NCBI GenBank assembly: GCA_020632075.1
Contig: JACKGH010000001.1
Location: 729,778 to 793,777, forward strand
Length of the DNA stretch: 64,000 bases
Reading direction: 5' to 3'
DNA from: Candidatus Nomurabacteria bacterium
GTDB lineage: Bacteria; Patescibacteriota; Minisyncoccia; Phycocordibacterales; UBA918
The notes under the pieces: model-generated
The model's database searches: none
Told to the model about the DNA's origin: nothing
What the model saw: the letters and a program-made list of their open reading frames with translations, nothing else
Position numbers and translations under genes: made by a program
In this document: piece by piece, positions 37,819 through 61,581 of the stretch
How the letters are laid out: the number at the start of each line of letters is the position of its first letter
Numbering within the stretch: position 1 is the stretch's first letter

Positions 37819-39219
37819 TTACTGTAGCTCATTCTCTCTCACCCGAGTATCAGGATCATAGGAAGTAGGCTCGAGTCGACGGATGAATAGGTACGCAAAC
37901 AGCGATGTGGCGATCACGATCGCTGCATAGAACCAAGGTGACTTACCTGGCACACTCGGCGCTACTGTGTGAAGCAGTGTTACCGGCCCAAAAAACGAAC
38001 TGCATGTTCGCTCTTTTTCGCAGCCAAATGATTGCTCGACGACCGCCACCTTCTGCAGCTCTTGATCATCAATGGCCTCACCAAGAAGAGGACCACTATA
38101 TAGTTCTGTTGTGAGAGTAAAGTCTGCCAGCTCCCATTCTGGAGAGAAGGAGTAATACTTCTTGTCCCATAGATCCTTGCTAGCAATCATCTCCCGTGAC
38201 AATTCTTTCTCAGCACGAGACAAGACGAATGCTACTTGGACCGGTTTGGCAAACTGTTTTTTGGTCGCACCCAGCACCGTCTGATCAACACAAGCCACGA
38301 CTTCGCTTGTTTTGGTCAACGGGTACTCACTTAAGCCAACCGCTGAGATGTACGGCAAGAGCACACTTTCCTCAACTGCCCCCACCCTCAGCACAGCAAC
38401 AGTAACGGGCGTAAAGTGATCAGCTGCCACCATCCCCGCATAGACGGTATACACCCCGTCTCCCTGCAAGGCAGCGTCAAGCTCTAACTGCTGCTTTGAT
38501 TGCGCGGCCAACACAGCTGGTTCACGAAGCTCAGTCAAGACCGCTGCCCCTTTTGGAACTATACCCTGCACCACACTCGCAAGAACCGTTTGCACAACTT
38601 CATTTGCAAGGTCATTATTTGCGCTACGCATTGATAGCGATAACGCATCTTCAGATCTAAGAATAATGCTTTGTCCGATACTCTTAAGACCGTTCACAAA
38701 CAGTTCAAAACTGACATCCTGTTCTCGTGGAGTTCGTTTCACAAGCGTGGCCATTGATTGCGTATCTGCTGTGAACTGACTGAACAAAGCCGTTTCATCA
38801 CCTTGTGCAATGAGCGCCTTTACAAAGTATGTACCAGCAGGAACCATTGCTAGGTCTGACTGCACCGATATTTGCCTCACCGTTCCAGGTTCAAGCTCAT
38901 AGGTGTCTGACAGTACGGTCCAGTACACTGGTGCTGCTGCGTACTGACTAGTATACAATCCAAGCCCAACCCTTACACCACCAAAATGGTACTTCGGATC
39001 AGTATTTTCGACCTCAACGACACCAACAAAACTGTCAGATACCTCAATCGGATCTTGTGCTGTATCAATATACACCTGCAATCCTCCGACAATTGGACAT
39101 TCTTTTGTAGGAATTTCAGTTACCTGAGCGCTGACGACCTGACCAATAGATACTACTCCCAAAGAAATAAGCACTATGGTAACACTAGCAAACTTTCTCA
39201 GTGATACTTTGAAAATCAT
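37819..39219 (-). CDS. secreted/anchored hypothetical protein, paralog A (signal peptide + C-terminal TM anchor)
   Basis: Shares blocks with 42248..43687: ECPIVGG/SCPIESA, YHFGGVRVGLGLY/YAVGGIRVGVFLF, VKALIAQGDETAL/LRLVAVQGDETDL, YISAVGLSEYPLT/YLSQVGLTEYPMT. Confidence 0.6.
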   Translation of the reverse strand: MIFKVSLRKFASVTIVLISLGVVSIGQVVSAQVTEIPTKECPIVGGLQVYIDTAQDPIEVSDSFVGVVEVENTDPKYHFGGVRVGLGLYTSQYAAAPVYWTVLSDTYELEPGTVRQISVQSDLAMVPAGTYFVKALIAQGDETALFSQFTADTQSMATLVKRTPREQDVSFELFVNGLKSIGQSIILRSEDALSLSMRSANNDLANEVVQTVLASVVQGIVPKGAAVLTELREPAVLAAQSKQQLELDAALQGDGVYTVYAGMVAADHFTPVTVAVLRVGAVEESVLLPYISAVGLSEYPLTKTSEVVACVDQTVLGATKKQFAKPVQVAFVLSRAEKELSREMIASKDLWDKKYYSFSPEWELADFTLTTELYSGPLLGEAIDDQELQKVAVVEQSFGCEKERTCSSFFGPVTLLHTVAPSVPGKSPWFYAAIVIATSLFAYLFIRRLEPTSYDPDTRVRENELQ

Positions 39220-39258
39220 ACTGCATTTGGTCGTAGTCGAAAACGATCGACCGCTTCC

Positions 39259-42255
39259 CTAGACTTCTGTTACTTCAGGTACCATTTCTACACGCACCTG
39301 TTCCACAAATGACGTGTTTGTGAGTGGCTCTATACAACGAAGTTCGAACACACTGGTGCTAGTGAGTATTCCTGTGGTAAACGAATCCGTATAACTAGGT
39401 CCGACATCCAATGTATTAAAGCTCTCGTTAAGGCCGCCAGCACCACTGACCGTACAATTTAGTGAGTAGGTTGCGTCCACGTCCCAATCGATCGTGACAG
39501 ATTGTGAACGACGGATCAATAACTTATCAACTGAAATATCCATCATTGGGTGCGGTACCGGAATGTTCACCGTTGTACAGCTTGTGTTGTTGGCAGTATC
39601 CGGGTTTGATTCTGGGAACGTATCACCATCCAAATTCACTTGACTACAGACCGTATGTGAACCAAATGGCACTTCATCAACAGTCTGAGCCAATGTTGGT
39701 GATTGTACTGGAGCACCAGGGGTTACGGGCGCAGTAAGTGAACCGTTGAAGTAGTCAACTTCTGTCTCAATATCTGACAACCCTAAACTTGGCATCAAAG
39801 TCAAGATAGCTTTATATGAGACGTGGCTATCTGTAGGCAATTCACCACCAAACCAAATACCTCCAATTTGGTGCATTGCATTTTCGATCACCATAAGGAT
39901 ATCAACATCGTTGTAGACTCCATTGACCGGGTCTTCAGTAGCAGCTGCCAAACTGACCGCTGGACTCGCAGACACCAGATCAACCGCCTCGATACAATAT
40001 CCAGTATCTGGATCAGCAATGAATCCATCAGGAGCATCGACGACCAGGTCAGTCTCAGGATCGATACATTCACCAACTGATACTACCGTCTCTGCCACAA
40101 GTGCATCTGGTGGTGGCAACTTGACCAGTACAGTACTTTCATCTGAAACCGAATCTGCAGTTCTTCCACACATCATTCCAAAAGCGGTGCTAGTTGACAC
40201 ATCCGCGTCTAGTAGACCCATAGCACTTGAACCACTGTACCAGGAGTACGAAGAACCATCTTCACGTACCGCAGGTATCTCGGCACAGTATGTTGTCTCT
40301 TCACTGATCCACATTAGCGGTACCGTCACGAAACCAATCGCTTTGTTGAATGGAACATCTACACTTGCTCCATCGCCCGCACCAAAGTAAATGTTTGAGA
40401 AACGACAGAACTCACTCCCTTCTCTTTCACAAGCGATCGTAACTATTTCACCATCATCAAGTGGCACATCACTGGCAACGAGTGCGGTCTTTAGTGTGCC
40501 TGAGTTACACTCAGCACTTGGACTATCAGGACTATCAGCTACCAATGTACCTATCAACCCACTCTTTTCGGTACTGAACTCAAAAGTCGAGGCTCCGTCG
40601 TTCTCATCACAGTACGTAAAGTGGATGTTGTATCGATCTGATCCATCAAATGGGTGCGAGAATGGAAACAAGATCTCACCCATACTTGTAACCGCAAGGT
40701 AAGTACCGTCGTCATAGAAACCTCCACCACCAACCTGCACCGCTTGTAACTCATCGACATCATACGAAACTGCATTCGCGTACATATACGTCTGCGGTTG
40801 ATCAGCCACTACAGCTGAATCAAGGACTTCAATAACTACACTTTCACTATCCATTCCATTATCCCGTTCCTCAGCGGTTCCATATAGAAAGTCATATTCA
40901 CGCATACATTCGACATCTAACACAGTATCTGAGGAGAGGAAGAAGCCAAACGTATCATTTCCTTCACCTGAGATGGGCGGATCTAGATGCTCCCAACCTG
41001 GTAAAACATAGTATGTAGCATGACCCATTTCTGCTAATGTGCTTCCATAAAACGCCCTTAACCAACAGTAACTGGCATTGTCTCTGTCCACCTGCACTTC
41101 TACCCACGCCTCCCCTGTAATTGGGTCACGTTCAACCTGAGCTGGTGCAGAAATATCCACAGTCACCGGAGGCAAAGAGGCTCGGTCCCACTCAGTCACA
41201 GAATTAACCCCAGGCGGCAATGCCACTCCAATGGTAATTGAGGTAGTGGTTGATACATATGGGTACGTAACTCCATTGAATACAATTTCTTCACGAAAAC
41301 AAGAGATCTCAAACGTTGTTGTTGCAATGATCTCAATATCTTCCATATATCCACTCTTGTACCAGCTTGGCACACCCCAACCAGTTGGGGTTTTTATTTT
41401 GACACCATCTTCATCATACGCAGCATAATTACATCGATACACGCTTTCTGCCTCAAAACCGATATCTACGTACGCATATCCGTACAAATAGTCCTGATAT
41501 ACAGTCGGATAATCTGGAGACCAGATATCAATTGTCGGGTCAGCCGGGGGCGTACCGTAGGTAATGTTCAAGGTGATCGACTGAGTGCTCTCTGTGCCGT
41601 TCGCGTCGTTGTAGCAGGTGATGTAGAACGTGGTCGTTTCAGTTATGCGGTCAAATGGTGTGCCATCAAAAACAACAATACCAGTAGTTCCTAAAGGTCC
41701 TGTATACCCGCTACTTACATTGGCCACAACCGGAACACCCGGGTTAGACTCCGTCTCATACCACACGTAAGAGCAACGTGTTGCATACTGTGTATCCCAC
41801 TGCACTATCACACTTGAGAGAGTCCCCGTTATCCCCCAGATCGTTCGGTCGGTACCCTCAGGAAGCTCCATGGTGATTTCAGGTTCGATCAGCACCTCAA
41901 CTGAGTCGGTGCCTTGCGTACAAGTCAACACATAACTCGTATCGGTGTCTGCCGGAGGTACCACAGTAATAGAACCACTGACAGGCAATACAGACGTATC
42001 AATATCGCCCACACCATTATTGATATAGCAACCTTGCGCATCATCGATATACCACTCAAGTGTGATCGGTGTTCCGTTTACGATCTCAGCCGTATTACCG
42101 CCATTAACAGTGAGAATGAGTACCGGTGTTAGCGCATGAGCAACCTGTGCAGACACTACCCAAAGAAAGAGTGTCACTACCCCAAAAACTGCAGTCAACA
42201 GTTTGGTTACTTGGAATGAAAATAGTTTTGATTTCATAGGCACAATATTATTCAC
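39259..42255 (-). CDS. giant secreted surface protein (998 aa) with repeated Ig-like/beta-sandwich-looking segments
   Basis: Signal peptide. Cys-paired repeats (VLTCTQGTDSVEV... / LRCIEPLTNTSFVEQV). Thr/Ser/Asp-rich. No enzymatic motif. Confidence 0.7.
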   Translation of the reverse strand: MNNIVPMKSKLFSFQVTKLLTAVFGVVTLFLWVVSAQVAHALTPVLILTVNGGNTAEIVNGTPITLEWYIDDAQGCYINNGVGDIDTSVLPVSGSITVVPPADTDTSYVLTCTQGTDSVEVLIEPEITMELPEGTDRTIWGITGTLSSVIVQWDTQYATRCSYVWYETESNPGVPVVANVSSGYTGPLGTTGIVVFDGTPFDRITETTTFYITCYNDANGTESTQSITLNITYGTPPADPTIDIWSPDYPTVYQDYLYGYAYVDIGFEAESVYRCNYAAYDEDGVKIKTPTGWGVPSWYKSGYMEDIEIIATTTFEISCFREEIVFNGVTYPYVSTTTSITIGVALPPGVNSVTEWDRASLPPVTVDISAPAQVERDPITGEAWVEVQVDRDNASYCWLRAFYGSTLAEMGHATYYVLPGWEHLDPPISGEGNDTFGFFLSSDTVLDVECMREYDFLYGTAEERDNGMDSESVVIEVLDSAVVADQPQTYMYANAVSYDVDELQAVQVGGGGFYDDGTYLAVTSMGEILFPFSHPFDGSDRYNIHFTYCDENDGASTFEFSTEKSGLIGTLVADSPDSPSAECNSGTLKTALVASDVPLDDGEIVTIACEREGSEFCRFSNIYFGAGDGASVDVPFNKAIGFVTVPLMWISEETTYCAEIPAVREDGSSYSWYSGSSAMGLLDADVSTSTAFGMMCGRTADSVSDESTVLVKLPPPDALVAETVVSVGECIDPETDLVVDAPDGFIADPDTGYCIEAVDLVSASPAVSLAAATEDPVNGVYNDVDILMVIENAMHQIGGIWFGGELPTDSHVSYKAILTLMPSLGLSDIETEVDYFNGSLTAPVTPGAPVQSPTLAQTVDEVPFGSHTVCSQVNLDGDTFPESNPDTANNTSCTTVNIPVPHPMMDISVDKLLIRRSQSVTIDWDVDATYSLNCTVSGAGGLNESFNTLDVGPSYTDSFTTGILTSTSVFELRCIEPLTNTSFVEQVRVEMVPEVTEV

Positions 42256-43687
42256 GCTTATCTGATCCGTTTACCTCGCCCTCTTCCTGATCATTTTCAT
42301 CTGCACTTTCCTCTTCCTCCTCTTCTTCCTCTGTCTTTTCTCGGGGAGGGATTGTGCGTAAGATCACATACACAAACAGTAGGATAACCACCACGACACT
42401 GCCGTACAAAATTATCGGCTGTACTTTGATCTCTGCTTCCTGCGCTACTGTACCTGCAACCACTTCGGTACCCTGGCCGATACACACATCAAACCCAGCA
42501 CAATTGAAAGTGTATTCGTATGAATCCACTACTGAAAGCAATTCTACGAGTGATTCTGTTGGCAAATCCTGCAGCGAAGCCGCTGAGTTGAACTGTTGAT
42601 GTAACAGATCAACAGTCAATGTGAAGTTCTTGTACTCCTTTTGAGGATGAACTTGGAAGAAGTTCTTCGCAGACACTTCACTACTGAGCACCTCTGCATT
42701 GAAGATGCCGCCTTCACCGATCGCAGACACCTTCACACCAATAGCCCCGGTGAAATGATCAACTCGATCCTCGGCTCCGGTATACCGTACACACATCACG
42801 ATCTCCCCCTTTTCGGTCATTGGATATTCAGTCAGACCAACTTGCGACAAATACGGCCATGAGATCACTTCATCAGTCTCAGGTCCTGCAACAACATGAG
42901 TAAGGATCGGTTGGAAGACACCTGGAGTCAGAACACCTGCAAACAATGCTGATTCCTTGGTGAGTACATAGTGCTGAGAAACCTCAACTGTTCGAGCGGA
43001 ACCAGGGACGAGTTTCACAGAGTCTACAGACTCATCTTTCACCGCAGCACCAAGTGGCACCCGACCCATCGTAACAACGGTCAGCACAGAGCTATCGGTC
43101 AGCGGCGTATCAGAATCATTCGTAACTACAATATCACCAGCGATCACACCCTCCGTCGCATCAGTTGAGGTGAACGAAAGAGCTGCTGATGATCGTTGTT
43201 CTCCAGTCTTAGTAAGACGCACACCTGAAACATCTGACGGCAACAACACTGCACCGAGTAAGTCAGTTTCATCTCCTTGCACAGCCACTAGCCGAAGCTC
43301 ATACGCCCCACCCTCAAGTGTGGAGGTGTCGACAGTCACAGGAATGGACTTTCTCTCCCCTGCCATCAATTGATACCTATCAGGTAACACGCTCCAGTAC
43401 GATGGACTGTCTGCCCCCTCAGCAAAGAGAAATACACCGACCCGAATTCCACCAACTGCATACGATGAAAGATTCTGGATCGTCACTTCTTCGCTAAAAG
43501 CACTCGTGACCTCATACGCTTCAGGAGAGTTAAGGAAAAGCGCGGTTACGGCTGACTCGATCGGACAGCTTCTCGAAGGCGCAACCCCCTGCTCAGCAAG
43601 ACCGACCACTGGCATTAGGGCTATTGATAAATTAATGAGTAATGCAAAAAATACACTGAGTGGTTTATTGGCTGTTTTATAGTACAT
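42248..43687 (-). CDS. secreted/anchored hypothetical protein, paralog B, with poly-Glu tail after the C-terminal TM
   Basis: Start trimmed to ATG 43687 (MYYKTANKPLSVFFALL... signal). C-terminal TM then EEEEEEEESADENDQEEGE tail. Paralog of 37819..39219. Confidence 0.6.
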   Translation of the reverse strand: MYYKTANKPLSVFFALLINLSIALMPVVGLAEQGVAPSRSCPIESAVTALFLNSPEAYEVTSAFSEEVTIQNLSSYAVGGIRVGVFLFAEGADSPSYWSVLPDRYQLMAGERKSIPVTVDTSTLEGGAYELRLVAVQGDETDLLGAVLLPSDVSGVRLTKTGEQRSSAALSFTSTDATEGVIAGDIVVTNDSDTPLTDSSVLTVVTMGRVPLGAAVKDESVDSVKLVPGSARTVEVSQHYVLTKESALFAGVLTPGVFQPILTHVVAGPETDEVISWPYLSQVGLTEYPMTEKGEIVMCVRYTGAEDRVDHFTGAIGVKVSAIGEGGIFNAEVLSSEVSAKNFFQVHPQKEYKNFTLTVDLLHQQFNSAASLQDLPTESLVELLSVVDSYEYTFNCAGFDVCIGQGTEVVAGTVAQEAEIKVQPIILYGSVVVVILLFVYVILRTIPPREKTEEEEEEEESADENDQEEGEVNGSDKRE

Positions 43688-43815
43688 ATGGTTCCCCGCG
43701 ACTCGTACCCTAAGCATACGAGATAAACCAAATTCCGACGGCTTACTTATACACATTTGCCTATCTTCGACACCAACGTGCACCGAACGCAAAACCAGCA
43801 TATACTTAAGAACAT

Positions 43816-45102
43816 ATGGATACCGCACGACAGCTTCTGAAACGAATCATCCCGAAGCGAATTTTTACTTTTTTACAGCCGTATTATCACTACCTACTCT
43901 CATATATAGGTGCAACACGCTACCACCACCCTTCTCGTGAGATCGTGGTTATCGGGGTAACCGGCACCAAGGGTAAATCATCAGTCACTGAAATCCTTAC
44001 CCACATCCTCCGCACTGATGGCAAGAAAGTTGCCTCCCTTTCAACGATCCAGTTTTCGATTGGCGATACCACCGAACGAAACTTATACAAGATGACCATG
44101 CCAGGTCGTTTCTTTGTGCAAAAATTCCTGCGCGAGGCGGTTGATGCTGGCTGCACCCACGCCGTGGTTGAGATGACCTCAGAAGGTGCCAAGCAGTACC
44201 GACACAAGTTCGTCGACATCGATGCGCTTATTTTTACCAATCTCGCCCCGGAACACATTGAATCACACGGCTCATTTGAGAATTACAAAAACGCGAAACT
44301 CTCGATCGCAGCGGCCGTAGCAGATTCACCGAAGCGACCGCGATACATCGTTGCTAATATAGACAATGAACACGGGGCAGATTTTTTGAACTTCGATATT
44401 GAACACAATCTCCCCTACTCTCTTAAGGACCTCTCGCTCTACACTCTTCATAAAGATAGTGTGAGCATGGTCTTTGGGGACACTACTGTGCGAGTGCCAC
44501 TTGTTGGACTATTTAATGTCTATAACAGTCTTGCTGCAATCACCCTCGCACGTGCGTTTGGTGTTTCGCTCGATACGATCCAAAAAGCCTTTCGTACCCT
44601 ACCGCCACTACGTGGTCGAGTAGAACATTTCGCGAGTCCGAAGGATGCCGCCAAGCAGGTCACAGCTGTTGTCGACTACGCCCACACGCCAGATTCGCTC
44701 ACTCAATTCTACGAAGCATTCCCCGATAAATATAAAGTTTGTGTCCTTGGCAACACTGGTGGTGGCCGTGACACCTGGAAGCGGCCAGAAATGGGTGCGA
44801 TCGCAGAAAAATACTGTAATCAAGTTATCCTCACTAACGAGGACCCATACGACGAAGATCCGGAAAAGATCATTACTGAAATGCAAAAAGGCATGCAGGA
44901 TGATGCACATGTCGAAGTGATTATGGATCGTCGCGAGGCCATTGCACGCGCACTAGAACTCACTCCACAAGACGGCTATACACTTATTTCTGGCAAGGGT
45001 ACTGATCCGTACATTATGGGACCAAATGACACCAAGACCCCATGGAGTGATGCAGAGGTAGTTCAAGAACTCCTTGCTGAACTTCCAAAAGCTACTCAAT
45101 AG
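43816..45102 (+). CDS. murE: Mur ligase family protein (MurE-like UDP-MurNAc-tripeptide synthetase, short N-terminus)
   Basis: P-loop GVTGTKGKSS, DYAHTPDSL and GGGRDTWKRPEMGAIAEK blocks matching MurE. Lacks the usual N-terminal domain 1. Confidence 0.65.
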   Translation: MDTARQLLKRIIPKRIFTFLQPYYHYLLSYIGATRYHHPSREIVVIGVTGTKGKSSVTEILTHILRTDGKKVASLSTIQFSIGDTTERNLYKMTMPGRFFVQKFLREAVDAGCTHAVVEMTSEGAKQYRHKFVDIDALIFTNLAPEHIESHGSFENYKNAKLSIAAAVADSPKRPRYIVANIDNEHGADFLNFDIEHNLPYSLKDLSLYTLHKDSVSMVFGDTTVRVPLVGLFNVYNSLAAITLARAFGVSLDTIQKAFRTLPPLRGRVEHFASPKDAAKQVTAVVDYAHTPDSLTQFYEAFPDKYKVCVLGNTGGGRDTWKRPEMGAIAEKYCNQVILTNEDPYDEDPEKIITEMQKGMQDDAHVEVIMDRREAIARALELTPQDGYTLISGKGTDPYIMGPNDTKTPWSDAEVVQELLAELPKATQ

Positions 45103-46588
45103 CAATTGTTGTCTCACGCACCAACCACCCATCACCCGCTGTCACTACGGTGGGTGTTTTGATTGTGCCAGCCGGCGTATAGACTTTGCTACTCACAAAA
45201 TTCCCTGCGCTCACAATATATGTATCGTTCCATACCGCCTGCACGCGGAGCATCTGATCAAGCTGGTACCACAGACTTTCTGGCTCATTAAACCACGCAT
45301 GAGAGATTGGATGCGCCACAAACGGCTGATCTGGCCGCTCTGTCGTGAGACGTCGCACACTGAGTGGATTCACACTCTCAAAACAAAACAGCACGCTCGG
45401 AAACTCACTCGGCAATTCAGCTTGTGAAATAAGATTTCCCGGCACCAATCCCATATCCCCTTTCACCGCATCAATGACCGCACTATACCCAAACCATTTG
45501 GCAAGCAACACAAACAACGACGCAAGATATTCTCCTTGTGGCACCAAGTAGCCTTTGTGCACCTTCTCGATCTGGTCAGTGGTTGAATCATACAAGTACG
45601 CCTGCAACACCCTACCCACCGGCAAAGTAATCACTTCGGTGTCTATCACGATCGTCTGTGGGTTGTTATACCGAAGTTGAAACTGAAACTTCTCCGAGCC
45701 AAGTGATTCTTTCTGATTAAAGAAGCCAGACCCTTCTGGAAGCACTACATACGCCGGATCCAACTCAAGTGCTACCACCATCGCCTCCCCCAGATTTTCT
45801 CGCACGCGGTGCAAACCAGCTTGGTCACGCAAGGTTGCAGTATCAGTCTTGGTTTCAATGATTGAAATTCGTGTCTCATATGTAGCCTGAATTACTGGCG
45901 AAGCTACCGACACAAAACTGGTCAGATACACCACCACCAACATTGCAATACCGTACCCAGCCATTTGTTTTGTTTTTGAAAGATGAAGCAGCACTAGCGC
46001 AAACAACACTCCTGCTGCACTAAGGATGTATACCCCTCCCCACTTCGCAAGGAGTAGCAGTAATGGGTGTTCAGCCAATACATAGCCAAGATATCCAAAA
46101 CTAAATGAAATATTTAAGTATCCGCCAGGACCGATAGCGAGTACTGAATATGCAAATGAACCAAAGATTTCAGCCAACACCCAAATTAGCGGTGTAAGTA
46201 AAAACATTGCACTAGCCTTATGATCCGCAAAGAGCTTTCTAAAAAGCCGCACCCCAGACACAACCACAGGACCACAGAGACCAATAGTGATCGCAGCTGC
46301 TACCCACGTGATACCAATCGCCAGTATCTGAGACTTGGCCGCCTCAAGTGGCAGCCAACTGATCGGATACGTCGACCAAAACCAAAACACTACAATACTC
46401 ACCTTAATAGTCCACGCCAACCACGAACCGATATAGAGAGACTTACGACCCATTTCAGAGATTGCTAAATGCAAAAAATACGCTGCACCAAGAATGGTCA
46501 CGATCCATAAAAACGGTGATAGGAAACCGATCCCCATTAAGACCCCTGAAGTGACCCACTGCAACCAACGATTATGTAACCAATCCAT
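45092..46588 (-). CDS. lnt: apolipoprotein N-acyltransferase (Lnt)
   Basis: N-terminal polytopic domain plus C-terminal CN-hydrolase domain (VVLPEGSGFF with catalytic E). Confidence 0.75.
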   Translation of the reverse strand: MDWLHNRWLQWVTSGVLMGIGFLSPFLWIVTILGAAYFLHLAISEMGRKSLYIGSWLAWTIKVSIVVFWFWSTYPISWLPLEAAKSQILAIGITWVAAAITIGLCGPVVVSGVRLFRKLFADHKASAMFLLTPLIWVLAEIFGSFAYSVLAIGPGGYLNISFSFGYLGYVLAEHPLLLLLAKWGGVYILSAAGVLFALVLLHLSKTKQMAGYGIAMLVVVYLTSFVSVASPVIQATYETRISIIETKTDTATLRDQAGLHRVRENLGEAMVVALELDPAYVVLPEGSGFFNQKESLGSEKFQFQLRYNNPQTIVIDTEVITLPVGRVLQAYLYDSTTDQIEKVHKGYLVPQGEYLASLFVLLAKWFGYSAVIDAVKGDMGLVPGNLISQAELPSEFPSVLFCFESVNPLSVRRLTTERPDQPFVAHPISHAWFNEPESLWYQLDQMLRVQAVWNDTYIVSAGNFVSSKVYTPAGTIKTPTVVTAGDGWLVRETTIAIE

Positions 46589-47228: not shown

Positions 47229-47301
47229 CCGCCCATAGCTCAGTCGGTAGAGCAGCAGCCTTTTAAGCTGAGGGTCCCAGGTTCGAGCCCTGGTGGGCGG
47301 A
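47229..47301 (+). tRNA. tRNA-Lys (anticodon TTT)
   Basis: D-arm gctc-agtcggta-gagc, anticodon loop cTTTTaa, T-arm ccagg-ttcgagc-cctgg, acceptor ccgccca/tgggcgg (C1-G72 by my fold, unusual). No CCA encoded. Confidence 0.75.
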
Positions 47302-47344
47302 CAAATAAAAACTCCCCTTAAGGGGAGTTTTTATTTGTCCGCCC
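47295..47344. terminator. 50-bp perfect palindrome (25-bp arms) acting as bidirectional terminator and incorporating the tRNA-Lys acceptor 3' strand
   Basis: GGGCGGACAAATAAAAACTCCCCTT|AAGGGGAGTTTTTATTTGTCCGCCC. Confidence 0.6.
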
Positions 47345-47993: not shown

Positions 47994-48692
47994 CTACCTC
48001 CTCCCCAACATCACACTCCGAAACACATTCCCTACCACACCCACCAACAAACCAAAGAGGAGTAATCCCACAAACCGCGTGATCACAAAAAACACCCAGC
48101 CAATATCAGTCTGCGGCTCCGCCACGGGAATACCCGCCATAAAAACCTTCAGTGACCACCACATCCCTGCTGGAATACTCGCAAACGCGGAGAGATTGGG
48201 CTCAGCCAGATACATCGCCGTACCGGTGATCAAGAGTGCCGTCACCAAAGTTGCGAAGTAGATCAAAATATTCAAAGACAACACCCCTGCGCCTTCGTCG
48301 GTCACCAAACCAGAGCGAGTGACTTTTGCGAGACGCAGCATTCGTAGCAGCCGAATGATCCGAAACGCTCGCGCAGACTTAAGGAACGTGAAGTTACCAA
48401 GCCCAAGAAATGTCGGCAGTATAGAAACCAGGTCAATGATTCCAAAGAAACTCACTACGTACTTCCACTTTGGTTTTGCAACCACCAGTCGACCAATGTA
48501 CTCGCCAGAAAATAAGATCACTGCCACCCACTCAACCACTAGAAAAAATTGGTCATACTTCACAAAGCTTGGCACTGTCTCCAATACCAAACTCACGATC
48601 GAAATGATCGTCAGGAACGCAAAGAAATTATTCACCGCTGCATATGTGCGCGACTGCGGTCGCAAAAACGCCTCCCGAAGCAACGTATTCAT
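47994..48692 (-). CDS. ion transport protein (voltage-sensor-containing cation channel family)
   Basis: S4-like helix with Arg every third residue (RAFRIIRLLRMLRLAKVTR) followed by pore-like helices. Only 232 aa. Confidence 0.65.
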   Translation of the reverse strand: MNTLLREAFLRPQSRTYAAVNNFFAFLTIISIVSLVLETVPSFVKYDQFFLVVEWVAVILFSGEYIGRLVVAKPKWKYVVSFFGIIDLVSILPTFLGLGNFTFLKSARAFRIIRLLRMLRLAKVTRSGLVTDEGAGVLSLNILIYFATLVTALLITGTAMYLAEPNLSAFASIPAGMWWSLKVFMAGIPVAEPQTDIGWVFFVITRFVGLLLFGLLVGVVGNVFRSVMLGRR

Positions 48693-48707: not shown

Positions 48708-49409
48708 CTAGAGTCGAAGCGACCAAGCCTCCAAAGCCACATCCATCTCCCGCACCCCCGCATGTCCATCGTGATATAGCTCCAAGAGTGATTGTGAGAG
48801 TTTCTCAACCTCCCCTGGCGCAAATTTACTCAGTGCACGCTTAGCTTTGTTGTATGGAAAATCTTTCATACCGGCTTCAGCGGCACTTGTAGTATTTTGC
48901 GCAAGGCGCAGTGCCTTCAGCTGCCACCAAAGCATACCGACGATCTCCTCTTCACGCAGCCCTTCAAACTTCGCCTCTTGCAAAAGAACCCAGAGCTTAC
49001 GCTTATCTTTCCCGGCGAGCGCTTCCGCGAGCGCGAAGGAATTGAAGCGGTCTGATTTTTCAGCTGCACATTCCTCCATGTCTGCCGCATACTTGGTATA
49101 CGCTTTTTTAGGAGCTGCCAAGAGCGCGCCCTCAAGCACCACAAAGGTGTTTGGTGACTCAGCCATTTCAGCTAATGCCGATTTTACCTCTTCATCACAC
49201 TCAGTATTATTGGACGGAGTATCGATCACAAACCACTCCGCACCTCCAAAGAGCGACGCCGCACCAAGCGCATCTGCGAGCTGCCCTGACTGATACTCGG
49301 CAGCATCGAGTGTGGTGAGCGTTGCGTCGGCTGGCTTGTTTTTTTCGATATAGGAAGTGGCAGCATCGCGCACGCCATTTCGATCTGTTCCGTAGAAGAG
49401 TGTGAACAT
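48708..49409 (-). CDS. holA: DNA polymerase III delta subunit (HolA), short form
   Basis: MFTLFYGTD N-terminus. Length and position (downstream of polA) consistent with compact holA. Confidence 0.6.
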   Translation of the reverse strand: MFTLFYGTDRNGVRDAATSYIEKNKPADATLTTLDAAEYQSGQLADALGAASLFGGAEWFVIDTPSNNTECDEEVKSALAEMAESPNTFVVLEGALLAAPKKAYTKYAADMEECAAEKSDRFNSFALAEALAGKDKRKLWVLLQEAKFEGLREEEIVGMLWWQLKALRLAQNTTSAAEAGMKDFPYNKAKRALSKFAPGEVEKLSQSLLELYHDGHAGVREMDVALEAWSLRL

Positions 49410-49413
49410 AAAA

Positions 49414-50142
49414 CTACTGATTCAATACTGAAAGGTCGTCTGGTTTTTTAAGATAATCTTCCACCAAAACAGAAATCTGTCGTAACTGCAACTTTGACGC
49501 ATCAAAGTATTTACCACCTCTGATATCGAGTACAAATTGGCTCATTCCAGAATCAACGTACGTTGGATACAAAATCAGATTGTAGAGAGTATTATCCCAA
49601 TAAATTCCTCCAAGGAGCGTCGGCAGCTCGTCAATGATGTAACCAGCCAATTTATGCTTATCTTCATCTGAGACGTCAACGTCTCTTAACTCAATATATT
49701 TATCGACAAAATGTAAGACTGCGTTTTGAAATTCAGAATTTTCCCAATACTCTTTCTCGAGAATACCCCGAAGCATGTCATACCCCCAATTATAGATATC
49801 TTCCCAGAAGATTACGTGCACATTAGAAATGTAGCCCATATCACCCGTTTCTCGCGCCAACGTACGTCGCGCCTTATCAAACATACCCGCCACACCGTAG
49901 CCTTTCTGCGCCGCTTTTTCTAGCGCCTCAGCTTCAGACAATCCTCGAAACACCTGCCAGTTAACTGCATCAATTTTATCGGCGATCAAAATGACTGCGT
50001 TCTTATTTGTATATTTATGCGCCCACTCAACATAATGTCGAGCCAGCTCTGGAGTAAGCAGCTTATTTCCTAAACTGATCCCCACAAAAATGTTAAACAT
50101 CTTTTGTTCGACTTCTTTTTCTGATACGTTGAAATATTGCAT
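49414..50142 (-). CDS. tRNA-dependent cyclodipeptide synthase (CDPS) family protein
   Basis: N-terminal IFVGISLGNKLL...W...AVILIADKIDAV matches the CDPS block LIGISAGNSYFS...W...VVYVDTHIDEM (AlbC/YvmC), including the catalytic GIS Ser. YIIDELPTL matches YVLAEAPLF/YVIAELPFF (catalytic Tyr/Glu). 242 aa, typical CDPS size. Confidence 0.6.
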   Translation of the reverse strand: MQYFNVSEKEVEQKMFNIFVGISLGNKLLTPELARHYVEWAHKYTNKNAVILIADKIDAVNWQVFRGLSEAEALEKAAQKGYGVAGMFDKARRTLARETGDMGYISNVHVIFWEDIYNWGYDMLRGILEKEYWENSEFQNAVLHFVDKYIELRDVDVSDEDKHKLAGYIIDELPTLLGGIYWDNTLYNLILYPTYVDSGMSQFVLDIRGGKYFDASKLQLRQISVLVEDYLKKPDDLSVLNQ

Positions 50143-50149
50143 GCAAAAA

Positions 50150-52534
50150 TTATTTTAACGCACTCATACTATTCCAGCTCTCCCCCACCTTCGCTTCAGC
50201 AATCAGTGGCACACCATGACTTTCTTTTTTAGTGAGGACGCCTTCCATAATTTCAATGATTTTATGGGCTGATTCTTCGAGTACTTCAGTTTTAATTTCA
50301 AACACGAGTTCGTCGTGGACCTGGAGCAGCATACGGACGTCGTCAGAGTTTTTGAGGCCCTCAATGTATTCGTGGACACGCAGCATCGCGAGGCGCATGC
50401 AGTCGGCGGCAGTTCCCTGGATCGGCGCATTGATCGCCATGCGCTCGGCCTGGGCACGGATAAACGGTACGCTTGAAGTGATCCCCGGGAACTGCCGCCG
50501 TCGCCCGATCAAAGTCTCTGTATAGCCGTGTTGCCGCGCGAAGGTCTTAGTGTCTTCAAGGTACTCTGCGAGTCGAGTAAAGGTATTGAAATACGCATTG
50601 AGGAACTCTTGCGCTTCTTCGCGCGGCGTGCCTTCACCGAGATTCTGCTGGAGTGCATTCACACCCATCCCGTAGAGAATCCCAAAGTTGATCACCTTGG
50701 CCTTGCGGCGCATGTCGGCCGTCACTTCATCTTGCTTCACTCCAAACACGCGAGACGCTACTCCCGCATGCACGTCTTCACCGCGCTTGAAGATGTCGAT
50801 CATCTGTGAATCTTCGGAGAGGATGGCCGCGATACGCAGCTCGATCTGCGAGTAGTCGATCGCCGCGAGGGTGTAGCCAGGTGCTGCGATAAAGGCGCCG
50901 CGAACGAGCCGCCCCTCCTCGGTGCGGATCGGAATATTCTGCAAGTTTGGATCCTTACTCGCCATGCGGCCGGTCGCGGCGCCGGTCTGCAGCAAGGTCG
51001 AATGCACCCGTCCATCTTCCCCAACGGTCGTCGGCAGTGCATCGACATAGGTCGATACCAGCTTCTGGAGTTCACGATAGCGCAAGATCTCAGCAATGAT
51101 CGGATGTTCATCACGCAGCTTCTCAAGCTCAGACTCCTTCGTACTGCGCTGTCCACCAGCAGTCTTCTTGGCATTTTTTGGTTTCAGGCCGAGTGTATCA
51201 AAGAGCACTTCCCCAAGCTGCTTTGGAGAATTGATATTAAATTCTGTCCCCGCATGCTTATAGATTTTCTTCTCCAAAGCAGCCAATTCTTTATGAAACT
51301 CTTTCGAAATTTTTTCGAGATACTTGGTATCAAGCAAAATACCGATCTGCTTCATCTTCGCCAAGACTGGAATGAGTGGTTTTTCAATATCAGCAAAGAT
51401 CTTCTCGAGCTCCTCCTCTTTTACCTTCTTTCTAAGCAACTTCACCGTCTCACCCCAGTCAGTCGCTTGGAGGAATGACTTGCCGTAGTCGAGAATATCA
51501 TCGAAGGACGCGTTGGTGCGTTCACTCTCAAGGAGCCACAAAAGGATCCTCGCCTCTTCAAGCTCTACATCACTGACCGCAGCAGCGATCGCCGCCGTAT
51601 CGACCAGCTCCATATCAAACAGTTTTTTGATCCGATCCGTCACCGCCCGGAACCCGAGCTCACTAAAGAGCTTGATGATCTCATCAGTATCAGCGTTTTC
51701 CTTCCACTCGGTTTCACTTACTTCAAATTTCTCAAGCGCATCGACACGAATAGTCGCCAACATCTTTGAAAACTCCGCGTCTTCTTTTCCTTCCTTGAGG
51801 AGATTAATAATACGCGGCTTGATACCTGCTTCCAAAAACGCTTCTTCACCCCCTTTCGATTCGAGTTTTTTGTAGATCTTCTCCAGCGAACCAAACGCAG
51901 CGATAAGCGTCGTAGCAGTCTTCTCACCAATCCCTGCGATACCCGGGATGTTGTCGGACGTATCACCACGGAGACCTTTGTAGTCTGGGACCAACTTCGG
52001 CCCGAAGCCAAACCGCTCCTTCACCGCCGCTTCATCGTAGAGCACGGTGTCTTTGATTCCCTTCTTGAGGGTAAAGACCTGCACGCGTTTTTTATCGACG
52101 CACTGCATCGTATCCATATCGCCAGACGCAATGATCACCCGCAGGTCTTTGTCGCTCGCCGTGAGATGCGCGATGGTGCCGAGCATATCGTCGGCCTCAA
52201 AACCTGCCTTCTCAAAAATCGGAATCCCAAACACTTTAAAAATATCGCGTGAGCGATCAATCTGCTGCACCAGCGCATCGTCGGTTTTTTTACGTCCTGC
52301 CTTATAGCCATCAAATGCTTCGTGACGATAAGTTGCTTCGGGCAAGTCATAACACGCTGCAATGTACTGGGGTTTAAATTCTTCGATGATCCGCAAGAGC
52401 ATTGTGGTCACGCCATAGAGTGCACCGGTTGGTTCGCCTGTCGGAGACGAAAAATCCGGCAACGCGTGGTACGCACGGTGCAAGATCGCATGTGCATCAA
52501 GGAGCACTAGAGTAGGAGTGTCTTTTTTGGCCAT
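50150..52534 (-). CDS. polA: DNA polymerase I
   Basis: 5'-3' exonuclease N-terminus (LVLLDAHAILHRAYHA), polymerase motifs A (DYSQIELR), B (RRKAKVINFGILYG) and C (VHDE). Start ambiguous: 52570 GTG, 52561 or 52534. Confidence 0.9.
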   Translation of the reverse strand: MAKKDTPTLVLLDAHAILHRAYHALPDFSSPTGEPTGALYGVTTMLLRIIEEFKPQYIAACYDLPEATYRHEAFDGYKAGRKKTDDALVQQIDRSRDIFKVFGIPIFEKAGFEADDMLGTIAHLTASDKDLRVIIASGDMDTMQCVDKKRVQVFTLKKGIKDTVLYDEAAVKERFGFGPKLVPDYKGLRGDTSDNIPGIAGIGEKTATTLIAAFGSLEKIYKKLESKGGEEAFLEAGIKPRIINLLKEGKEDAEFSKMLATIRVDALEKFEVSETEWKENADTDEIIKLFSELGFRAVTDRIKKLFDMELVDTAAIAAAVSDVELEEARILLWLLESERTNASFDDILDYGKSFLQATDWGETVKLLRKKVKEEELEKIFADIEKPLIPVLAKMKQIGILLDTKYLEKISKEFHKELAALEKKIYKHAGTEFNINSPKQLGEVLFDTLGLKPKNAKKTAGGQRSTKESELEKLRDEHPIIAEILRYRELQKLVSTYVDALPTTVGEDGRVHSTLLQTGAATGRMASKDPNLQNIPIRTEEGRLVRGAFIAAPGYTLAAIDYSQIELRIAAILSEDSQMIDIFKRGEDVHAGVASRVFGVKQDEVTADMRRKAKVINFGILYGMGVNALQQNLGEGTPREEAQEFLNAYFNTFTRLAEYLEDTKTFARQHGYTETLIGRRRQFPGITSSVPFIRAQAERMAINAPIQGTAADCMRLAMLRVHEYIEGLKNSDDVRMLLQVHDELVFEIKTEVLEESAHKIIEIMEGVLTKKESHGVPLIAEAKVGESWNSMSALK

Positions 52535-52587
52535 ATCTGACAGTATACGAGTTTTCTGCATTTTCACCACTTAACGACCCAGGCACT

Positions 52588-52675: not shown

Positions 52676-53107
52676 CTACGCTACAGTCACCACTCGCACC
52701 TCACCCTCTGTAATTGAAATATCCACCCGTACTGCACTCTCTGGAATATATGAAGCGATCTGCTCTGGCCATTCTACACACACAATCGTGCGCGGCTGGG
52801 TAAATACTTCTTTTAGTCGAAGCGGCTCCGCTTCGCTTTCATCTTCGAACCGATAGGCATCAATATGCACCAACGTATCGAATCTATCATGTGAAAGTTC
52901 GTACTGCTTCATGATAGTAAACGTCGGACTTGTGATCGGCTCGGTCACCCCCAGATTCTTGGCCAATTCCTGTGTAAAGGTAGTCTTCCCTGCCCCCAGA
53001 TCACCTGACAGCGCAATAACCAAGACCTCTCCAGTCATTCCACTCAACAGATCGTTTGCCACTAAATTAAAATCAGACGGTACTGACACTTGGTACGTTT
53101 TTCCCAT
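52676..53107 (-). CDS. tsaE: tRNA threonylcarbamoyladenosine biosynthesis protein TsaE
   Basis: P-loop SGDLGAGKTTF and 143 aa size. Confidence 0.8.
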   Translation of the reverse strand: MGKTYQVSVPSDFNLVANDLLSGMTGEVLVIALSGDLGAGKTTFTQELAKNLGVTEPITSPTFTIMKQYELSHDRFDTLVHIDAYRFEDESEAEPLRLKEVFTQPRTIVCVEWPEQIASYIPESAVRVDISITEGEVRVVTVA

Positions 53108-60336: not shown

Positions 60337-61581
60337 TTACCGTACCAGTACCACACTCAACTGCTTCTTACCACGTTTTAAAAGCAACACACCTTCAATA
60401 GTGTCGGCTGCAGATATCTCAACCTCGACCGAAGTCACTTTTTCACCATTTACCGAAACCGCGCCATCTTCTACAAACGTACGTGCTTCACGCTTACTTG
60501 CTGCCAGCTGTGTGGCCACTAACACATCAACAACGTTACTACCAGACTCAATCTCTGTACTCGGCGCATTTGCAAGCAACATTTCTCGTTCCACCGCTGA
60601 AAGTTCAGCTAATGACACACCACCAAACAAAATACCTGAGACACTCTCAGCCGCCCGTGCCGCCTCTTCCCCATGCACGAGCGTCGTCACCGCAAGCGCT
60701 AATGCCTTTTGTGCAGCACGTGCTCCTGGATCAGCTTGCTGCTCTTCTGCAATCTTCTCGATCTCATCCAAAGACAAAAATGTAAACCGCTTCAAATGCT
60801 CCACCACACTATCATCACTCACATTGAGCCAAAATTGGTAAAACTGATATGGTGAAGTTTTTTCAGGATCAAGCCACACTGCATTACCCTCACTCTTCCC
60901 AAACTTCTTTCCAGTCGCTTTATCAATAATAAGTGGCACAGTAACTGCATACACTTCAGTCTGCTTCTTGCGTCGCACCAACTCTACTCCTGAGACAATA
61001 TTTCCCCACTGATCAGAACCACCGATCTGAACGGTACACCCCTTGGTCTCAAACAGCTGTAGGTAGTCGTAGCCTTGCAAGATCGGGTAGGCAAACTCGG
61101 TGTATGAAAGTCCTGTATCACTTGATAGTCGTGTAGCGATCGCGTCTTTCTTGATGAGCTCATTGACCGTGTAATGCTTTCCAATATCTCGCAAAAAATC
61201 GATCAATTTGAGTTCACCAAGCCATTCTAGATTGTTTACAAATTCGATCTCAAAACCAGTAAAAAACTTCTCAGCTTGTACCTTAAGCTTAGCCACATTT
61301 TCTGCCACCGCAGCAGCGTCTTTCAGCTCACGTTCAGCATCTGGCTTCGGGTCGCCGATCATGCCAGTTCCACCCCCCACCAAGAAAACGATCTTATGCC
61401 CACCTTGAGCTAGATAGCGAAGCAACATCCAAATTACAAAGTTCCCAGCATGCGCTGAATCTGCACTTGGGTCAATACCATGGTATATGGTACGCTGCTC
61501 ACCATCGATAATGGTAGCGAGTGAAGGGCCGGCGATCTGGTGAATAAACCCGCGGGCTTCAAGTTCTTGTGAAAGGCTCAT
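60337..61581 (-). CDS. tyrS: tyrosyl-tRNA synthetase
   Basis: KMSKS motif KFGKSEGNAVWL, class I Rossmann N-terminus, C-terminal S4 domain. Confidence 0.9.
   Translation of the reverse strand: MSLSQELEARGFIHQIAGPSLATIIDGEQRTIYHGIDPSADSAHAGNFVIWMLLRYLAQGGHKIVFLVGGGTGMIGDPKPDAERELKDAAAVAENVAKLKVQAEKFFTGFEIEFVNNLEWLGELKLIDFLRDIGKHYTVNELIKKDAIATRLSSDTGLSYTEFAYPILQGYDYLQLFETKGCTVQIGGSDQWGNIVSGVELVRRKKQTEVYAVTVPLIIDKATGKKFGKSEGNAVWLDPEKTSPYQFYQFWLNVSDDSVVEHLKRFTFLSLDEIEKIAEEQQADPGARAAQKALALAVTTLVHGEEAARAAESVSGILFGGVSLAELSAVEREMLLANAPSTEIESGSNVVDVLVATQLAASKREARTFVEDGAVSVNGEKVTSVEVEISAADTIEGVLLLKRGKKQLSVVLVR

Follow-up and report, generated by a model that had tools for sequence, protein, structure and literature searches.

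The window analysed here is a stretch of 64,000 nucleotides (nt) from contig JACKGH010000001.1 of a Candidatus Nomurabacteria bacterium. On its minus strand, at 49414–50142, a gene with an ATG start codes for a homologue of the tRNA-dependent cyclodipeptide synthases (CDPSs), 242 amino acids (aa) in length, and lies between polA and a holA-like gene. Comparison of sequences and a structural model make it probable that the product is an active, stand-alone CDPS of the XYP subfamily, that its gene is an accessory one occupying a variable slot at the polA–holA junction, and that a cyclodipeptide of phenylalanine type, or an otherwise hydrophobic one, is its likely product.

Assignment to the family is carried by profile, structure-sequence and fold matches. 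The protein scores 32.6 bits with PF16715 (CDPS; cutoff 27), the sole Pfam family matching it at E ≤ 1, and 50.2 bits with TIGR04539, 'tRNA-dependent cyclodipeptide synthase' (cutoff 45), margins that are modest for a single sequence. All significant matches in a sequence search of the Protein Data Bank (PDB) are CDPSs, the best being the 7qa* series of ParcuCDPS (E value of 3.6e-16 over residues 8–217). A profile of 34 relatives, searched against the PDB, matches ParcuCDPS with an E value of 5.5e-36 and also detects FoCDPS, BtCDPS, YvmC and AlbC, with CDPSs accounting for 21 of 21 matches. The AlphaFold2 model, which was built on the alignment of the relatives, has a pLDDT of 92.8 and a pTM of 0.89; its best 50 Foldseek matches in the PDB are all CDPSs (TMq of 0.56–0.76), headed by ParcuCDPS, an enzyme of Parcubacteria bacterium RAAC4_OD1_1 (TMq of 0.68–0.76 and TMt of 0.75–0.83). 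Motifs typical of the family are present as GISLGN (residues 21–26), VILIADKID (50–58) and YIIDELP (168–174). A sequence-only reading of the window had already placed a CDPS in this open reading frame (ORF), and both the ORF and the identification hold up under the PF16715 search and the structural comparison that it had proposed as checks. The blocks GISxGN and YxxxELP that it cited are there, whereas its 'VVxVDxxID' is inexact, the block being real but reading VILIADKID. By profile scores, modelled fold and catalytic residues, the 242-aa protein is a genuine member of the CDPS family and can be classed with the XYP enzymes.

Conservation of residues was assessed in an alignment of the 34 relatives (36–84% identity to the window protein), to which the sequence of ParcuCDPS was added from Gondry 2018, supplementary file 4; AlbC numbering was taken via ParcuCDPS and the table of the 2018 census, not from a direct alignment. 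Residues S23, D55, Y168, E172, Y192 and P193 are invariant in the relatives and align to S26, D58, Y167, E171, Y191 and P192 of ParcuCDPS. All are encoded on the minus strand. Ser23 (50074–50076; AlbC S37) is the predicted acyl-enzyme nucleophile, Asp55 is encoded at 49978–49980, and the block Y168-I-I-D-E172 (49627–49641) contains the putative catalytic Tyr and Glu (AlbC Y178 and E182); the codons of Ser23 and of this block were checked. In ParcuCDPS, the variants S26A, D58A/N, Y167A and E171A/Q are inactive, and D58 forms a hydrogen bond with the catalytic Ser (PMC7613923); Y191 too is among the residues validated there by mutation. The XYP subfamily is defined by Tyr-Pro at AlbC positions 202–203, where NYH enzymes have Tyr-His (2018 census; PMC7613923), and the pair Y192-P193 (49564–49569) therefore places the window protein in the XYP subfamily. 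At position 40 in AlbC numbering, the window protein has N26, and distant members have V or I.

Applied to the window enzyme, the established ping-pong mechanism of the CDPSs would have a first aminoacyl-tRNA pass its aminoacyl group to Ser23, positioned by Asp55, with the side chain held in pocket P1. A second aminoacyl-tRNA would then bring the P2 residue to form a dipeptidyl-enzyme, and Tyr168, Glu172 and Tyr192 would assist cyclization to the 2,5-diketopiperazine. Compared with its closest relatives, the gene has a proportion of nonsynonymous differences (pN) of 0.10–0.14 and of synonymous differences (pS) of 0.83–0.94; synonymous sites are saturated even in comparisons with the nearest relatives, and pN and pS are given here rather than a dN/dS ratio. 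Because pN is low while pS is saturated, the protein is under strong purifying selection and is not a decaying insertion.

The specificity pockets were read at the positions of the 2018 census (P1, AlbC positions 33, 35, 65, 67, 119, 185, 186 and 200; P2, positions 152, 155, 156, 159, 204, 206 and 207), carried over via ParcuCDPS and CDPS 91; the census motifs of both enzymes were reproduced, by script for ParcuCDPS and by reading for CDPS 91. The P1 pocket is the hydrophobic FGLAWTLI (F19, G21, L52, A54, W113, T175, L176 and I190), and P2 is FKYL (F145, K148, Y149 and L152) followed, in the indel placement adopted here, by TVD (T194, V196 and D197). Both pockets are conserved across the clade. 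The first five P1 residues, FGLAW, are common to the window enzyme and two XYP enzymes that accept Phe. CDPS 91, with P1 FGLAWSLL, makes cFF, cFY, cFL and cFM (2018 census), and CDPS 17, or ParaCDPS, with P1 FGLAWVIC, makes cHF and was trapped with Phe on the catalytic Ser (2018 census; PMC7613923); the XYP Leu/Ile group has P1 FGLGC... instead of FGLAW (2018 census). Because P1 is hydrophobic and FGLAW matches the two Phe-accepting enzymes, P1 is weakly predicted to hold a Phe-type (aromatic or hydrophobic) residue, and by analogy the most likely product would be a cyclo(L-Phe-L-Xaa), or a hydrophobic cyclodipeptide closely related to it, that undergoes no tailoring.

Among characterized enzymes, ParcuCDPS (CDPS 90; ETB63777.1; PDB entry 7QB8 and mutants) belongs to the same family and to the XYP enzymes, comes from a host in the Candidate Phyla Radiation (CPR) and shares the catalytic residues of the window enzyme, Ser/Asp dyad included (S26/D58, corresponding to S23/D55). 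It differs in both pockets, with P1 GAYAWELY rather than FGLAWTLI and P2 FEWKYTR rather than FKYLTVD, and by a two-residue indel after Y-P, and its product is expected to differ. CDPS 91 from Methylovulum miyakonense (WP_019864150.1) is a slightly better match than ParcuCDPS (29% identity over 196 residues, E value of 3e-22) and, like CDPS 17 from Parabacteroides sp. 20_3, is an XYP enzyme with the FGLAW core. However, these two enzymes have proteobacterial and Bacteroidetes hosts and P2 motifs LNYSTYA and QERRIPL, respectively, and the identity to both is, at the level of sequence, too low for a confident transfer of specificity. The NYH enzymes AlbC, YvmC and Rv2275 have the same fold and the same Ser/Tyr/Glu/Tyr set (profile matches to 3oqh at 8.6e-6 and to 3oqv at 1e-3; Foldseek TMq of 0.59–0.69), but they carry Y-H rather than Y-P at positions 202–203, with 15–19% identity in structural alignments. 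The nearest counterpart by pocket motifs, the only basis on which it was compared, is OHB23997.1, a protein of the same phylum-level group with an identical P1 and a near-identical P2; the 2018 census lists it as an uncharacterized Parcubacteria protein with P1 FGLAWTLI and P2 FKYLTID. It and the window protein evidently fall, to judge from these motifs, into the same specificity group.

The location of the gene was compared with 80 metagenome loci (L039–L118) carrying relatives of the window's holA-like protein (46–71% identity). In 68 of these, polA is directly upstream of holA, and contig ends truncate the other 12; the gap between the two genes is ≤30 nt in 36 loci, 31–170 nt in nine and 280–1,440 nt in 23. 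Many related loci also have tsaE upstream of polA and an ion channel gene after holA, and none of the 80 contains a CDPS. ORFs sampled from the long gaps and compared with Pfam encode a MazE-type antitoxin together with a toxin of ParE type (L057, L069 and L083 at least; L060 and L067 have the same antitoxin gene), another ParE-type module (three loci), a protein with a weak receiver-domain match, on the opposite strand (at least six loci), and a Bax1-I membrane protein (one locus); several further ORFs lack a Pfam match. The frame tsaE–polA–slot–holA–ion channel is conserved and its slot is variable; in the genome of the window the slot, equivalent to 49410–50149, is filled by the CDPS gene. 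This order, with the identical protein and the same spacings, is found in six independent assemblies from different sequencing runs, and the arrangement is therefore no assembly artefact or chimera. Runs in which the identical locus is present include SRR14234112-14.

Relatives of the CDPS itself were examined in 38 loci (approximately 33 distinct; 28–86% identity), 35 of them by tblastn with the window's polA, holA, tsaE and ion channel and three by gene tables, and none of these four genes is near the CDPS in any of the 38. The context is different in every genome examined: the CDPS gene follows argS-rsgA (P0005, 86% identity), prkA-DUF444 (P0004, 84%) or an IS110 transposase (P0069, 67%), and stands between NADAR and DUF2914 genes (P0013, 81%), between DUF2726 and HTH-SocA genes (P0014, 76%) or between nusA and rplL (P0098, 61%). 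A comparison of CDPS with housekeeping identities between genomes found hardly any housekeeping genes common to these loci and the window, and is therefore uninformative on horizontal transfer. The GC content of the CDPS gene is 40.7% (42% at third codon positions, GC3), compared with 51.1% for polA (GC3 59%) and 52.1% for holA (GC3 52%), and this low value fits a foreign origin; the gene would then have been acquired horizontally. Because the CDPS is absent from the polA–holA junction of relatives, other accessory genes occur there and the relatives of the CDPS lie elsewhere, the comparative data identify the gene as an accessory gene, apparently a lineage-specific insertion into a variable slot, whose position implies no functional tie to replication.

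AlbC is encoded in a cluster that contains the cyclodipeptide oxidase AlbA/B, and the cluster of YvmC contains the P450 CypX. The window CDPS, in contrast, does not sit with tailoring enzymes: no P450, cyclodipeptide oxidase, 2-oxoglutarate (2OG) oxygenase, prenyltransferase or small-molecule methyltransferase is detected by Pfam within approximately 13 kb of it, in line with the sequence-only reading, which had noted no P450, oxidase or methyltransferase beside the gene. The gene does not belong to a CDPS gene cluster of the classical kind. Among its relatives, an all-versus-all BLAST of 312 neighbour ORFs from the 5 kb around the CDPS in 30 loci revealed no family that recurs, save for one syntenic pair of close relatives, and no tailoring family is enriched in the pooled Pfam matches of 106 flanking proteins, which comprise housekeeping genes and sporadic GNAT (three), SET (three) and radical SAM (two) proteins.

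Other readings of the protein have to be set against an active CDPS with a hydrophobic product. CDPSs are structurally related to the catalytic domains of class-Ic aminoacyl-tRNA synthetases (aaRSs; cf. the title of PDB entry 2x9q), and a true tyrosyl-tRNA synthetase (TyrRS) gene lies in the same window at 60337–61581, which would leave room for a fragment or paralogue of a class-Ic aaRS (TyrRS or TrpRS), or another Rossmann-fold protein, misread as a CDPS. However, neither the HIGH nor the KMSKS motif of class-I aaRSs is present in the 242-aa protein, no aaRS family, tRNA-synt_1b included, matches it in Pfam at E values of up to 1 (the TyrRS of the window matches PF00579 at 3e-76), and no aaRS is found among its PDB sequence matches or its 50 best fold matches. 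Since the profile, motif, PDB and fold tests all came out in favour of a CDPS, this candidate was rejected and has a close to negligible probability; the better match to an aaRS or other Rossmann protein that the sequence-only reading had named as grounds for doubt is absent, and the Ser, Tyr and Glu are in place after alignment. It is more conceivable, though still quite unlikely, that the CDPS fold here serves another chemistry, acylating a different acceptor or deacylating tRNAs, for instance as a toxin-like accessory gene, with no physiological diketopiperazine being made. The subclade is uncharacterized and only 27–29% identical to assayed enzymes, its CDPSs are always stand-alone, the same slot holds toxin–antitoxin modules in relatives, and several CDPSs were inactive on expression in E. 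coli (2018 census). Yet all the residues for both half-reactions and for cyclization (S23, D55, Y168, E172 and Y192) are invariant, both pockets are conserved, the family profiles score above curated cutoffs, and neither an antitoxin-like partner nor any other recurrent neighbour accompanies the gene. A His-incorporating enzyme that makes cyclo(His-Pro) or cyclo(His-Glu), as might be expected from ParcuCDPS being the best sequence and structure match and likewise coming from a Parcubacteria genome, is very unlikely. In ParcuCDPS, the P1 residues Y55, E174 and Y189 recognize histidine, as determined by mutagenesis, and engineered Y55V/E174L/Y189L variants lost His and gained Leu/Phe specificity (PMC7613923). 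The window enzyme has L52, T175 and I190 at these positions, resembling those variants, and is only 25–27% identical to ParcuCDPS; it is accordingly predicted not to be of the His type.

A different question is whether the placement of the gene is meaningful, with the CDPS or its product coupled to DNA replication or growth rate. As the sequence-only reading had pointed out, the three genes are tightly spaced on one strand, with 7 nt separating the stop codon of polA from the start codon of the CDPS gene (50143–50149, minus strand) and 4 nt separating the stop codon of the latter from the start codon of the holA-like gene (49410–49413, minus strand). The arrangement is stable across the six assemblies, and no internal promoter or terminator signal rises above chance. 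The weight which that reading placed on a replication operon is not borne out, in that polA–CDPS–holA occurs only in the population of its own genome and the close relatives are each located elsewhere. With 0 of 38 CDPS-relative loci having polA, holA, tsaE or the ion channel nearby, 0 of 80 holA-relative loci having a CDPS (polA and holA abut in most of them), and the same junction holding toxin–antitoxin and unrelated genes in other relatives, the idea of an operon-based function was rejected as largely refuted by the synteny data, and a coupling to replication is highly improbable. Co-transcription with polA and holA is a separate matter. Read-through from polA is plausible because the gaps are of 7 and 4 nt and no signals exceed chance, and the CDPS gene would probably be read through from the polA transcript, although the promoter and terminator scan, with counts at chance level, is uninformative for or against co-transcription.

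Several points weigh against an active CDPS with a hydrophobic product, encoded by a foreign gene in this slot. The GC content of the CDPS gene at second codon positions (GC2) is 28%, so that amino-acid composition accounts for part of its low GC, and the saturation of pS precludes dating a transfer or telling its direction. The 7-nt spacer between polA and the CDPS gene shows no evident Shine-Dalgarno-like sequence. The last three P2 positions hinge on where the two-residue indel after Y-P is placed, and MAFFT gives VSG in their stead. The closest characterized enzymes are 29% (CDPS 91) and 25–27% (ParcuCDPS) identical to the window enzyme, and the prediction of the product is weak because it draws on eight pocket positions and on characterized enzymes of only 27–29% identity. 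The authors of the 2018 census caution that pocket positions may transfer poorly within the XYP enzymes, and a literature search found no assay of any member of the subclade of the window enzyme.

The identical protein is present in NCBI as MCA9354080.1 and MCB9816484.1, both named 'tRNA-dependent cyclodipeptide synthase [Candidatus Kaiserbacteria bacterium]', and the genome is treated here as one of Candidatus Kaiserbacteria (Patescibacteria/CPR). Protein clusters of 59–87% identity to it number more than 100, nearly all from Patescibacteria-type or unassigned metagenome contigs, and in a library of 1.84 billion representatives (clusters at 50% identity) 248 clusters match at E ≤ 1e-3 and 15 at E ≤ 1e-30. 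Among the XYP enzymes whose activity the 2018 census leaves unpredicted are CDPSs from Parcubacteria, Kaiserbacteria, Moranbacteria, Azambacteria, Zambryskibacteria and an uncultured archaeon. Relatives of 30–40% identity occur on contigs assigned to DPANN archaea (Woesearchaeota and Nanoarchaeota/Nanobdellota; L017, L018, L020–L025 and L033–L035), with the catalytic set conserved and a P1 of FGLAWTLL, near-identical to that of the window enzyme; in L025, an archaeal-type ATP-dependent DNA ligase directly follows the CDPS. These sequences suggest that CDPS genes have been transferred between CPR bacteria and DPANN archaea. Some distant representatives are longer than the approximately 240-aa domain (374–716 aa; P0131, P0142, P0209, P0227, P0240, P0245, P0247 and P0266), and their length indicates probable fusions to other domains.

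In two distant patescibacterial loci, a SET-domain gene overlaps the CDPS stop codon by 20 nt (L027:7989–9117 and L032:2518–3682; PF00856 E values of 1e-10 and 1.6e-13), an overlap that suggests translational coupling and makes a CDPS–SET pairing possible. A third, L031 (7974–9217), has an ORF overlapping downstream of the CDPS that has no Pfam match; the CDPSs of the three loci are 28–32% identical to the window enzyme. A class-I S-adenosylmethionine (SAM) methyltransferase gene diverges from, and overlaps the start of, the CDPS gene in patescibacterial locus L014 (7293–8015, minus strand), and a homologous gene lies approximately 2.9 kb from the CDPS in the Woesearchaeota locus L018 (11562–12383, plus strand). 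This proximity in two of 30 loci may be coincidence or may point to an occasional tailoring partner. In L028 and L033, the CDPS has GNAT genes beside it.

The finding adds little that is new in kind, as catalogues of CPR CDPSs go back to 2018, a structure and engineered variants exist for one of them, and NCBI already gives this exact protein its correct name. The specificity group defined by P1 FGLAWTLI and P2 FKYLT[V/I]D is, by contrast, uncharacterized, and it is conserved across more than 100 protein clusters. At 30–40% identity, the CDPS clade is shared between ultra-small CPR bacteria and DPANN archaea, as stand-alone genes in varied contexts. Because the CDPSs of CPR and DPANN genomes come without tailoring genes, the plain cyclodipeptide is probably the end product there, which bears on how genome-reduced symbionts talk to or act on their hosts. 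One could go further and propose that the product of the clade, a hydrophobic cyclodipeptide left untailored, acts as a diffusible signal or manipulates the host in an episymbiotic lifestyle, with charged tRNAs as the substrates in cells unable to synthesize most amino acids on their own; taken as a whole, this scenario is speculative and rather unlikely. A signalling or host-interaction role, which the sequence-only reading had raised, is neither supported nor excluded by the present data, and a literature search yielded only legends on types of biosynthetic gene cluster (BGC) and the papers already cited, with no coverage of the biological role of CPR CDPSs. In the Kaiserbacteria lineage, the junction of polA and holA is a recurrent landing site for accessory genes, and it counsels caution in inferring function from operon position in such genomes.

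The flanking genes of the slot are all on the minus strand. polA (DNA polymerase I; 50150–52570), the upstream part of the frame, is an 806-aa ORF with a PF00476 match at 9e-143 and both 5'-3' exonuclease domains in Pfam (PF02739 and PF01367). Its start codon is uncertain, with the gene callers of other assemblies giving 803 or 794 aa as against the 806-aa ORF that begins with GTG. Downstream, the holA-like gene (DNA polymerase III delta, short form; 48708–49409) matches TIGR01128 at 7e-16, its 58.4 bits being under the cutoff of 80. The encoded protein is short (233 aa, compared with approximately 320–340 aa for typical delta subunits), has no Pfam family above threshold and is apparently the clamp-loader delta subunit in a reduced CPR form. 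The frame is completed by tsaE (52676–53107; PF02367 at 2e-34) and, at its downstream end, by an ion-transport protein gene (47994–48692; PF00520 at 8.9e-19).

Farther out on the holA side lie genes for DUF2202 and RuvA proteins, followed by three large proteins with no match, a Mur ligase, a 498-aa membrane protein and, nearer the CDPS gene, a SpoU RNA methylase, tRNA-Lys and the ion channel, after which come holA, the CDPS, polA and TsaE. Beyond TsaE are a PilB-type ATPase, RuvB, a TrmB-type regulator, a histidine phosphatase, YebC, RuvC, TyrRS and a class A penicillin-binding protein (PBP). The three large ORFs are consecutive (466, 998 and 526 aa; 37819–43828, minus strand), have no Pfam match at E ≤ 1e-5 and may encode large unknown surface or secreted proteins of the sort common in CPR genomes. 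The 498-aa protein (45092–46588, minus strand) is apparently a multi-pass membrane protein, also with no Pfam match at E ≤ 1e-5; its gene shares 11 nt at the start with the end of the convergent Mur-ligase gene and, at its stop, overlaps the gene of the SpoU methylase. Two genes of tRNA biology, for neither of which there is evidence of a functional link to the CDPS, are the TyrRS gene at 60337–61581 (minus strand), approximately 10 kb away, and a tRNA-Lys(UUU) gene at 47229–47302 (plus strand), approximately 2 kb away.

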